Positions 3,083 through 3,171 of a DNA stretch of 11,964 bases are shown in pieces (position 1 is the stretch's first letter; each line of letters opens with the position of its first letter). Source of the DNA: a virus; the UHGV virus genome UHGV-1565976; one strand, given 5' to 3'. The translations under genes were made by a program, and so were the position numbers. Under the pieces are notes generated by a model. It did not search any database and was not told the DNA's origin. It was given only the letters and a program-made list of their open reading frames with translations.

Positions 3083-3171
3083 ACAAAACAGAGAAGAACA
3101 CCTGCGGTGGCAGCCGCCCGGGTGGATTGGGTTATGAGCCCGTCGTCCGGTGATGCTCTTCTCTGTTTTGT
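3083..3171. repeat. long inverted repeat: perfect 15-bp arms (ACAAAACAGAGAAGA / TCTTCTCTGTTTTGT) around a ~59-nt GC-rich spacer
   Basis: Arms at 3083..3097 and 3157..3171 are exact reverse complements; lies in the 5' leader of the leftward operon. Confidence 0.6.

Follow-up and report, generated by a model that had tools for sequence, protein, structure and literature searches.

A conserved three-way-junction RNA in the leftward operon leader of lambdoid prophages, closed by a candidate RNase III processing stem

The leftward operon leader

The window analysed in this study is a stretch of 11,964 nucleotides of the viral genome UHGV-1565976. The operon of interest is the leftward PL operon of a lambdoid prophage of the CPS-53/SfV/mEp460/ST64B type (Table 1). 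In the order of transcription, PL is followed by about 210 nt, the unit A hairpin, a DicF/STnc100-like small RNA (sRNA) with its terminator, helix P1 enclosing P2 and P3, the GGAGAA motif, hairpin H4, a ribosome-binding site and yfdP. The element formed by P1, P2 and P3 was originally noticed as an inverted repeat said to lie just upstream of the first leftward gene; this is correct because the element ends 49 nt before the yfdP ATG (3034), with H4 placed between it and the yfdP ribosome-binding site. The PL promoter and its operators are sequence predictions, and the putative promoter aligns with the LLS promoter TTGACC-17-TAGATT.

Table 1. Features of the leader and its surroundings. Coordinates are those of the window.
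Feature	Position	Strand	Basis or remark
yfdP, first gene of the leftward operon	2672..3034	-	annotation
H4, hairpin CGACCU-UGCA-GGGUCG	3055..3070	-	covarying stems, loop UGCA or GGCA; fold of the 621-nt leader
GGAGAA, conserved, directly 3' of P1	3077..3082	-	can pair with the U-tract, extending P1 to 25 bp
Whole element, three-way junction (P1, P2, P3)	3083..3171	-	fold, covariation, model score
P1 3' arm, GGUGUUCUUCUCUGUUUUGU	3083..3102	-	fold, alignment; G.U pairs on this strand only
P3, variable hairpin GCGG-CUGCCA-CCGC	3104..3117	-	P3 comparison across relatives
P2: CCGG/CCGG base helix, GA/UC pairs, apical hairpin	3118..3150	-	fold, alignment
P2 apical hairpin GGG-CUCAUAA-CCC	3129..3141	-	13/13 nt identical to E. 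coli initiator tRNA anticodon stem-loop
P1 5' arm, ACAAAACAGAGAAGAGCAUC; first 15 nt are the right-hand repeat	3152..3171	-	folds, covarying pairs
DicF/STnc100-like hairpin GCGGUACCAG...CUGGUACCGC (3217-3179), then UAUUUUU	3172..3217	-	intrinsic terminator, abuts P1 without spacer
Unit A, upstream paralogous long hairpin with P1-like arms	3357..3432	-	corresponds to the Qin hairpin with the RNase III-made DicF 5' end
Predicted PL promoter: TTGCAT 3677-3672, 17-nt spacer, TATCTT 3654-3649	3649..3701	-	sequence
Operator-like sites TTGCATATCTCGCAA (3701-3687) and TTGCATAATGCGCAA (3677-3663)	within 3649..3701	-	repeat D18, common to the OR region (4466-4484)
cI-like XRE/S24 repressor gene	3757..4449	-	own terminator at 3736-3719

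The sequence-only reading had mentioned an adjacent terminator and missed its identity: it is the 3' hairpin of the DicF/STnc100-like sRNA and lies upstream of the element by transcription. In relatives, the region 5' of the element scored 28.4 bits (L022) and 16.5 bits (L003) with the DicF model (RF00039), both below gathering, and 45.1 bits (L006) with the STnc100 model (RF02076, gathering 47), where the match ended exactly at the U-tract. The window itself gives no match to either model; an alignment with K-12 DicF was also made. In 98 of the 101 distinct contexts compared, P1 is immediately preceded by a GC-rich hairpin and a run of four or more T. The three terminator-free contexts are L011, L109 and L081; in L011 and L109 it is a PL-like promoter that precedes the element, by 25-30 nt. 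Different genes occupy the first downstream position (two YfdP families, RdgC-like, YfdR-like and others), with their starts 30-157 nt beyond GGAGA. In these 101 contexts, the orientation and position of the element relative to promoter, terminator and first gene are constant.

The 700-nt gap contains only short unconserved ORFs, with no N-like or conserved ORF. A 36-aa arginine-rich ORF (3288-3398) was rejected as a gene, as it is not conserved in ST64B, LLS or Kp4866. A mini-ORF starting at the (A/G)UG before GAGAA was also discarded, since the Klebsiella group has ACG at its start and the frames through H4 differ among relatives. No conserved promoter was found inside the terminator or the U-tract.

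Structure, conservation and distribution of the element

The sequence-only reading described a perfect 15-bp inverted repeat with a 59-nt spacer. Indeed, ACAAAACAGAGAAGA occupies 3083-3097, and its exact reverse complement is found 59 nt further on, at 3157-3171. Such a pair had been judged improbable by chance in 12 kb, and this was borne out by dinucleotide-preserving shuffles of the window (n = 300, spacer up to 100 nt): a 15-nt perfect inverted repeat was the maximum in only one of them, the modal longest repeat being 10 nt. In a repeat search, the arms extended to 25 nt at 84% complementarity (3083-3107 and 3147-3171). The perfect 15-mer is particular to the allele group of the window; in most relatives one G-C pair within it is replaced by a C.C mismatch.

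The minus-strand RNA folds with an energy of -49 kcal/mol (z = -6.5), which was equalled by none of 200 shuffles, whereas the plus strand reaches a z of only -3.5. When the whole 621-nt leader was folded, P1, P2, P3 and the neighbouring hairpins were all retained. P1 is 20 bp long alone and 25 bp with its extension. The stretch it encloses measures 49 nt in the window and reaches about 75 nt in those relatives whose P3 carries long inserts. What had been described as a GC-rich loop with short palindromes is in fact a pair of inner hairpins, P2 and P3. The G.U pairs of the element exist on the minus strand only, being A.C on the opposite strand, and the covariance model built on the element (R1) scores 109.5 bits on the minus strand versus 32.8 bits on the plus strand. 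The repeat was also considered as an intrinsic terminator and rejected: its loop would be 49-59 nt, the stem is followed by GGAGAA and not by a U-run, and the terminator scan does not report it.

The structure is conserved and covaries in relatives. More than 60 distinct relatives, drawn from Enterobacteriaceae and Erwiniaceae, keep about 97% of paired cells, with many compensatory changes. RNAalifold analysis of 22 sequences gave 35 pairs; compensatory changes occur in 7 of these, such as GC13:CG9, AU19:GC3 and AU18:GC4. In a set of 66 distinct sequences, 97.1% of cells are paired, as against 43-55% when the partners are slid, and 94 cells carry double changes versus 36 +/- 4 after shuffling (0/500). 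In a separate set of 37 matches (36 distinct sequences, loop variants included), 10 double-change pairs were counted versus 4.7 +/- 1.2 in shuffled data (0/500). The P2 base helix covaries from CCGGG/CCCGG to CCGAG/CUCGG, CCGACGG/CCGUCGG, GCGUG/CACGC and CUGUCUG/CGGGCAG. P3 is the variable arm, with 37 distinct sequences of 13-38 nt, nearly all hairpin-forming, in which stems are swapped wholesale. The inverted repeat is the helix P1 closing a conserved three-way-junction RNA. The sequence-only proposal of an RNA element in the leader of the leftward operon agrees with the strand bias of the G.U pairs, the model scores and the compensatory changes.

The motif is present, unannotated, in 2519 of 5426 complete E. 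coli genomes, with up to 5 copies per genome. Carriers include Stx2c-converting phages, cdtI, the Shigella serotype-converting phages SfII, SfIV and SfV, and Salmonella ST64B. E. coli K-12 has no copy, its CPS-53 prophage having lost the element. A search of the window's right operon and of the rest of the complete mEp460 genome revealed no nutR-like second copy. Variants also occur in late operons, upstream of holin genes, where P1 is only 5-7 bp and GGAG is absent. No family of Rfam 15 matches the element: at gathering score, the whole window yields only C4 and isrK, both away from it, and at E up to 10 the region 2950-3800 gives chance matches only (Hairpin ribozyme, on the wrong strand at 17.5 bits, and CC0196). 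The motif strings were absent from the literature searched. The three-armed leader RNA is previously undescribed and, given its good covariation and its more than 60 distinct members, is a well-supported candidate RNA family for curation.

An initiator-tRNA-like hairpin at the tip of P2

P2 is the most conserved part of the element. Its tip, GGGCUCAUAACCC, is identical over 13 nt, three G-C pairs included, to the anticodon stem-loop of tRNAfMet (sequence for comparison: PMC8887418). The remainder of the element forms no cloverleaf. ARAGORN detected no tRNA or tmRNA gene in the window and 10 loci, and the Rfam tRNA model had no match at the element; the possibility of a tRNA gene was thus rejected.

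Among 132 elements collected through the 3' arm alone, 106 contain the 13-mer exactly, the sixth loop position being A or U. The loop is altered in the other 26 (UUCAUAA, CCCAUAA, CCCAUCA, CUCCUAA and GUG-CCCUAA-CAC), and these natural variants break tRNA rules. The module GA(C/A)-GGG-CUCAUAA-CCC-AAUC-C is kept while all surrounding helices are replaced, and was found in three scaffolds: the PL type, the late-operon type (L029, L042, L079, L150-L159) and L062. Real phage tRNA-Met genes bear the same string (L031, L092 and L104). Antisense targets of the P2 loop were also sought, and TTATGAG and GGGTGGATT were no commoner than chance. Pairing of the loop with the start codon of the first gene was rejected, as it comes down to AUG alone. 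The near-invariance of this hairpin points to a partner, and this is the most interesting question raised by the element.

Processing of the leader and alternative readings

The structure, strand, conservation, covariation and fixed post-terminator position of the element are established by the comparisons above. Regarding its role, we give about even credence to P1 being the RNase III processing stem of the PL leader, within a cis-acting three-way-junction RNA. Transcripts ending at the terminator would give the small RNA only, whereas those reading through would form the P1 duplex of 20-25 bp. By analogy, RNase III would cleave this duplex. The cut would define the 3' end of the sRNA just past the terminator hairpin, rid the early-left mRNA of its long structured leader and set the apical P2/P3 domain loose as a fragment of its own. 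The element sits exactly at the decision point between a DicF/STnc100-type sRNA and the early-left genes (recombination functions, xis/int); therefore, it probably governs both the proportions and the ends of these products. RNase III sites in the lambda N leader and in T7 early mRNA are hairpins of about 20 bp that punctuate early polycistronic transcripts just before a gene; their architecture is plainer, a simple hairpin with internal loops and no conserved branched domain at its apex.

The analogy comes from the dicBF operon of the K-12 Qin prophage (1990 work as summarised in PMC5069750), likewise leftward and PL-like, under the cI-like repressor DicA. There, the order is the same: a DicF-type terminator, at once a long-range stem of 19-21 bp with a structured domain, then the first ORF. 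The Qin stem has 19-nt arms (2945-2963 and 3074-3092) that are 89% complementary with 110 nt between them; it starts just after the DicF terminator, ends 18 nt before the dicB ATG and folds with z = -5. As in these stems, P1 is an intramolecular duplex of about two helical turns (20 or 25 bp, covarying) that directly follows a DicF-type terminator and precedes the first ORF. The RNase III-made 3' end of the 72-nt DicF, computed from the published RNA length, falls at 2883 + 71 = 2954, within the 5' arm of the Qin stem. However, the arms of that stem have no detectable similarity to P1, its 110-nt enclosed domain is STnc100-like (34 bits) and lacks a P2/P3 junction, and the R1 model does not match 2945-3092.

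RNase III also makes the 5' end of a 190-nt DicF species (bioRxiv 10.1101/2023.04.14.536235), which by length lies near 2746, in the 3' arm of a long Qin hairpin (2673-2758) upstream of dicF. The arms of this hairpin, CAUAACGCGAAAGCGCAUGG and CCGUGCGCUUCCGGUUGUGG, resemble those of P1, ACACAACAGAAAAGGGCAUC and GGUGCCCUUCUCUGUUGUGU, and its counterpart in the window is unit A, at about 3432-3357. The likeness is weak (the P1 arms of R1 align to 2673-2758 with 13.3 bits, E = 0.049); moreover, the interior is not conserved and the hairpin stands upstream, not downstream, of the sRNA. The two Qin stems can thus be taken as positional analogues of P1, of which one is at best a weak homologue and the other has no detectable similarity. 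Double cuts by RNase III in intramolecular stems are a median of 58 nt apart in vivo (PMC6212723); the corresponding lengths for P1 are 49 nt in the window (59 nt between the perfect 15-nt arms) and at most about 75 nt in relatives. The long duplex is not universal in the motif because late-operon variants have the short P1, and RNase III cutting gives no reason for the conservation of P2. Of the three roles offered by the sequence-only reading, the processing site is nevertheless the best supported, through the Qin analogy. A processing role for P1 would be a concrete extension of a long-known, little-explored RNase III step in DicF biogenesis.

The other two roles fare less well. A comparison with the put RNAs of HK022 had been offered by the sequence-only reading, and the two do share being cis-encoded structured RNAs in early leaders of lambdoid phages without an N-type protein. 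However, put RNAs are two tandem stem-loops of about 70 nt, without closing helix and located before terminators (PMC9378689), whereas the element is a three-way junction with a closing helix of 20-25 bp. Furthermore, putL lies right after PL, a position found for the element in L011 and L109 only. putL and putR (NC_002166) have no motif in common with the element, and R1 has no match in HK022 (L026, L027); topology, sequence and position all argue against membership of the put family, and the comparison did not hold. A put-like function is a wider proposal, in which the nascent junction would bind the elongating RNA polymerase, with or without Nus factors, and carry it through downstream terminators or Rho sites along the long early-left operon. 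Besides the two promoter-proximal elements, it could draw on the absence of an annotated N-like gene in mEp460, the gathering of mEp phages as Nus-dependent (PMC11893012) and the presence of variants in late-operon leaders, which are also antiterminated. However, these late variants follow a Q gene, already a source of antitermination. The 3' arm GGUGCUCUUCUGUGUUGUGUGG recalls rrn boxA and boxC; yet no boxA consensus was found above chance in the window, and the boxA-like stretch is locked in a covarying helix. Moreover, the terminator is upstream in nearly all contexts, beyond the help of a cis-acting nascent RNA, and the window has no convincing downstream intrinsic terminator. We regard processive antitermination or anti-polarity as quite unlikely. 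Slightly less probable still is a translational element, in which the junction and GGAGAA would form a ribosome standby or loading site, or a switch for access to the ribosome-binding site of the first gene. GGAGAA is near-invariant right after P1, TGTGGAGAAAC(C/T)AA is a real ribosome-binding site elsewhere in the window (5331-5358 and 9539-9554), an open P1 would let the pyrimidine-rich 3' arm pair with the Shine-Dalgarno sequence further downstream, and the first start codon always falls within the 30-157 nt range. However, this range is five-fold, no start codon lies at a working distance after GGAGAA, no small ORF is conserved in frame or sequence, and the first gene is served by a ribosome-binding site of its own, past H4. 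In addition, unit A carries GGUGAAU where the element has GGAGAA, and the late variants do without GGAG. A DNA-level feature, such as a palindromic recombination linker, a protein-binding site at a mosaic boundary or a miniature inverted-repeat mobile element, is highly improbable. Distant phages (ST64B, Kp4866-6) are indeed homologous over the element alone, with breaks at its ends, the P3 of the window is the reverse complement of H4 in relatives, and a genome may hold several copies. Nevertheless, the DNA-binding site of the sequence-only reading is not supported because covariation preserves pairing at the RNA level, G.U pairs included. A mobile element was rejected: the flanks show no target-site duplications, orientation and position are the same in 101/101 contexts, and no copies were seen outside prophage leaders.

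A different view is that the apical three-way-junction domain is the functional product, acting on a host reader of the initiator-tRNA anticodon arm as decoy or recruiter; candidates are the 30S P site with IF3, MetRS or a tRNAfMet-cleaving VapC-type toxin. P1 would then be a mere scaffold or a processing stalk, which is compatible with RNase III cutting. mRNA operators that mimic tRNA anticodon arms are known, as in the thrS operator. The identity to the tRNAfMet arm, the phage tRNA-Met genes bearing the same string and the survival of the module in all three scaffolds despite helix replacement speak for such a function, and invariance of the module across hosts fits a universal host partner. 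On the other hand, the tRNA-likeness is limited to 3 bp and the loop, neither ARAGORN nor the Rfam tRNA model reports anything, and the altered loops include U33-equivalent changes and loss of CAU, which a strict mimic should not tolerate. On balance we consider this function unlikely. A specific version of it, to which we assign slight probability, would join it to processing: RNase III would cut both P1 strands and leave a stable P2/P3 RNA (about 50 nt here, up to about 75 nt in relatives) that acts in trans on the reader of the anticodon arm (30S P site, MetRS or VapC-type toxin), as a tRNA-arm decoy made from early and late operons.

Finally, the architecture was compared with that of C4 antisense RNA (P1/P7, RF01695) and P4 CI RNA, which share the same topology, with a long closing stem around two hairpins, a length of about 90 nt and excision from a phage leader transcript, which for the element is a proposal. 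C4 RNA is matured by RNase P. Membership of the C4 family (clan CL00128) was rejected, the region 2950-3800 giving nothing with its model at E up to 10. Sequences complementary to the P2 loop or its flank were not enriched and were absent from the leader, and the motif is single-copy in the window. A true C4 RNA is located in the same window, at 5809-5896 (78.8 bits).

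The inverted repeat in the leftward leader

Among lambdoid prophages, the window belongs to the CPS-53/SfV/mEp460/cdtI/ST64B type. The leftward genes yfdR-yfdQ-yfdP are followed by a 700-bp gap without annotated gene, a leftward repressor gene, and rightward cro-like and ymfL genes. A promoter-like sequence was taken from its sequence as the putative leftward early promoter, PL. With PL placed left of the repressor, the repeat would sit in an untranslated leader of about 600 nt of the leftward operon. As the sequence-only reading had stated, it lies just upstream of the first leftward gene; 49 nt separate it from the yfdP start codon, the ATG at 3034.

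The 15-nt inverted repeat was confirmed, with ACAAAACAGAGAAGA at 3083-3097, its exact reverse complement at 3157-3171 and 59 nt between the arms. Longer arms of 25 nt (3083-3107 / 3147-3171), 84% complementary, result when mismatches are allowed. The repeat is far beyond chance, as initially suspected: a perfect inverted repeat of at least 15 nt with a spacer of at most 100 nt occurred in 1 of 300 dinucleotide-preserving shuffles of the window, where the modal longest perfect inverted repeat was 10 nt. The perfect 15-mer is peculiar to the allele group of the window, most relatives in the RNAalifold alignment having a C.C mismatch within it. Folding of the minus-strand RNA gave -49 kcal/mol (z = -6.5), and the plus-strand fold was weaker (z = -3.5).

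Features of the leftward leader and of the corresponding Qin region
Feature	Position	Strand	Description
cI-like XRE/S24 repressor gene	3757-4449	leftward	
Repressor gene terminator	3736-3719		just left of the repressor gene, as are two operator-like sites
Promoter-like TTGCAT-17-TATCTT (putative PL)	3677-3649		aligns with a good TTGACC-17-TAGATT of phage LLS
Unit A, second long hairpin	about 3357-3432	minus	farther upstream in leader; arms resemble P1, interior differs
Hairpin before P1	3217-3172	minus	GCGGUACCAG...CUGGUACCGC-UAUUUUU
P1, closing helix	both repeat arms	minus	20-bp helix
P2, inner hairpin		minus	CCGGG-YGAC-GGG-CUCAUAA-CCC-AAUCCAY-CCGG; after one unpaired A 3' of the P1 5' arm
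P3, inner hairpin		minus	13-38 nt; swapped wholesale between lineages, 37 distinct versions
H4 hairpin	3070-3055	minus	conserved, stem covarying; after GGAGAA, before the first gene
Qin long-range stem	L160 (K-12 Qin) 2945-2963 / 3074-3092		19-21 bp, 110 nt enclosed, fold z = -5

A three-way-junction RNA conserved on the minus strand

Relatives were collected from phage records, from one representative genome per species searched with the core as pattern, from IMG/VR with the same pattern and, in an independent IMG/VR search, through the 3' arm. The species search yielded 20 loci in Escherichia, Shigella, Citrobacter, Enterobacter, Kosakonia, Leclercia, Klebsiella, Pseudescherichia, Pseudocitrobacter, Buttiauxella, Mixta and Erwinia. 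A single minus-strand architecture is common to all collected relatives: P1, an unpaired A, P2, P3, an unpaired A and P1 again.

Homologues were also inspected for compensatory changes. RNAalifold recovered the fold, with such changes at 7 pairs. In a covariance-model alignment of 66 distinct sequences, standard pairs made up 97.1% of pair cells, versus 43-55% with the partners slid, and 94 cells were changed on both sides, versus 36 +/- 4 in shuffles (0/500). Among 37 matches with loop variants included (36 distinct sequences), 10 pairs carried double changes, versus 4.7 +/- 1.2 in shuffles (0/500). The base of P2 covaries from CCGGG/CCCGG to CCGAG/CUCGG, CCGACGG/CCGUCGG and GCGUG/CACGC, and likewise between CUGUCUG/CGGGCAG and CUACCUG/CGGGUAG. 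Conserved U.G pairs (CAUC/GGUG) are possible on the minus strand only, and R1, the covariance model of the element, scored 109.5 bits on this strand versus 32.8 for the reverse-strand echo.

The element has no match in Rfam 15, even at E up to 10, no tRNA was found by ARAGORN, RefSeq carries no annotation there, and its characteristic strings occur in none of the papers searched. Complete E. coli genomes carry it in 2519 of 5426 cases, with up to five copies each; it is a widespread, previously undescribed structured RNA.

The closing helix abuts the terminator of a putative small RNA. A GC-rich hairpin with a run of at least 4 T lies directly 5' of P1 in 98 of 101 distinct contexts, its stem differing between lineages. 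Judged by sequence, this hairpin is DicF-like: the stretch before P1 can be aligned with K-12 DicF, and the Rfam DicF model falls at exactly this position in L022 (28.4 bits) and L003 (Klebsiella phage Kp4866-6; 16.5 bits). The STnc100 model scored 45.1 bits in L006 (gathering 47), ending exactly on the U-tract. STnc100, PasD and DicF are Hfq-type small RNAs encoded by prophages (bioRxiv 10.64898/2026.05.13.724894; PMC5069750). Rfam detected nothing in the window allele at 3172-3240 (-), a stretch which resembles an sRNA of the DicF/STnc100 type whose seed differs, being AGCAGCCACUGCUUUA here and GCUGUGUGUAGUCUU in relatives. The interior of unit A in L003 holds two T-arm-like hairpins, GGTTCGATTCC and GTCCGTTCGATTCGGAC, and no tRNA by ARAGORN.

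Directly downstream of P1, GGAGAA is nearly invariant. The first gene varies between phages (two YfdP families, RdgC-like, YfdR-like, others) and starts 30-157 nt past GGAGA; thus the element belongs to the operon leader and not to a particular gene. Many relatives have, downstream of the element, an H4 hairpin GCGGTGGCAGCCGC whose reverse complement is the P3 of the window, GCGGCTGCCACCGC (3104-3117, -); P3 and H4 also share recurrent UUGCAG/UGGCAG loops.

Proposed processing by analogy with Qin

The dicBF operon of K-12 Qin is, like that of the window, leftward and repressor-controlled. One DicF species, of 190 nt, owes its 5' end to RNase III (bioRxiv 10.1101/2023.04.14.536235); according to PMC5069750, which cites Faubladier et al. 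1990, RNase III also makes the 3' end of the 72-nt form, and the 53-nt form is a product of termination. The published RNA lengths were used to calculate where both RNase III ends lie in the K-12 sequence. On this basis, the 72-nt 3' end maps to L160 2954, inside the 5' arm of a long-range stem that begins just past the terminator of DicF and stops 18 nt short of the dicB start codon (ATG). The order DicF-type terminator, RNase III-cut long-range stem, first ORF is therefore documented in Qin, and the window repeat is the positional counterpart of this stem. By the same calculation, the 5' end of the 190-nt species is near L160 2746, within the 3' arm of the long hairpin 2673-2758, the Qin counterpart of unit A; the P1 positions of R1 align weakly to this hairpin (13.3 bits, E = 0.049). 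P1 encloses 49-75 nt; this is similar to the spacing of RNase III double cuts in intramolecular stems in vivo, whose median is 58 nt (PMC6212723). The domain that the dicF-dicB stem encloses (L160 2933-3142) scored 34 bits with STnc100, so the K-12 DicF neighbourhood holds an unannotated STnc100-like structure.

By analogy, the element is probably an RNase III-type processing stem of phage early transcripts with a conserved apical domain. In transcripts reading through from PL, RNase III would cut P1, thereby trimming the sRNA just past its own terminator, detaching the early-left mRNA from the leader and freeing the apical domain. The putative homology with the Qin hairpin predicts that the downstream 5' end would lie near 3096.

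The sequence-only reading of a leader RNA element, probably a processing site, is right in kind, but its main comparison, with the HK022 put antitermination RNAs, does not hold. The element fails every sequence-level comparison with put and has the terminator on the wrong side. Still, an activity on the polymerase, though unlikely, would suit the position right after PL in two relatives, the lack of an annotated N-like gene in mEp460 and the isolation of mEp phages as Nus-dependent (PMC11893012). The DNA-binding site also offered, like any DNA-level role for the repeat, is contradicted by the covariation and the strand-specific G.U pairs. A translational role for GGAGAA is weakened by its variable spacing to the first gene, by the presence of GGUGAAU at the corresponding position of unit A, and since no conserved start codon or ORF was found.

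The P2 hairpin and other features of the window

P2 is the most conserved part of the element, and processing by RNase III does not account for this conservation. Its tip, GGGCUCAUAACCC, equals the E. coli tRNAfMet anticodon stem-loop over 13 nt (tRNA sequence from PMC8887418). The module GA(C/A)-GGG-CUCAUAA-CCC-AAUC-C is kept in quite different scaffolds, which argues for a sequence-specific partner. A late-operon version (IMG/VR contigs L029, L042, L079, L150-L159) forms a three-way junction whose P1 has just 5-7 bp; it follows a terminator, and holin genes from four different families begin about 45 nt further on; in L079 it sits downstream of a Q-like gene. In L062, an unrelated phage contig, the 21-nt module GAC-GGG-CUCAUAA-CCC-AAUCC forms a simple hairpin (10412-10499, +), with a real tRNA-Gln gene (10718-10791) following after about 220 nt. 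When the surrounding 2.5 kb was compared with the phage database, that tRNA-Gln gene alone gave matches, in Stenotrophomonas phages, which hints at a tRNA-derived origin. Altered P2 loops (UUCAUAA, CCCAUAA, CCCAUCA, CUCCUAA, GUG-CCCUAA-CAC) were found in 26 of the 132 elements collected through the 3' arm alone, which makes strict initiator-tRNA mimicry doubtful; on the sequences compared, P2 is unlikely to be such a mimic.

The string TTTGTGGAGAAACCAA after P1 (3072-3087, -), with no start codon following it in the leader, is repeated exactly at 9539-9554 (+), where it is a ribosome-binding site, and in part, again as ribosome-binding site, at the gene starts 5331-5358 (+) and 11355-11379 (+). 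Between yfdQ and yfdR, a 22-nt imperfect palindrome without U-run (1735-1782; AAATGCCCC...GGGGCATTT) could serve the leftward operon as RNA stabiliser or as processing hairpin. In the rightward operon, isrK (5708-5784, +; 58.7 bits) lies beside a C4 antisense RNA (5809-5896, +; 78.8 bits), the pair being inside a mechanical 382-aa ORF (5348-6496) upstream of Rha/antirepressor-like genes; here a c4-ant immunity module of the phage P1 type is carried by a lambdoid prophage. Finally, 6979-7083 (+) contains a direct repeat of about 39 nt in three copies (GTGCAGGAGATTCAC...), with spacings of 24 and 42 nt; these are possible iterons, or repeats internal to a replication/regulatory gene.
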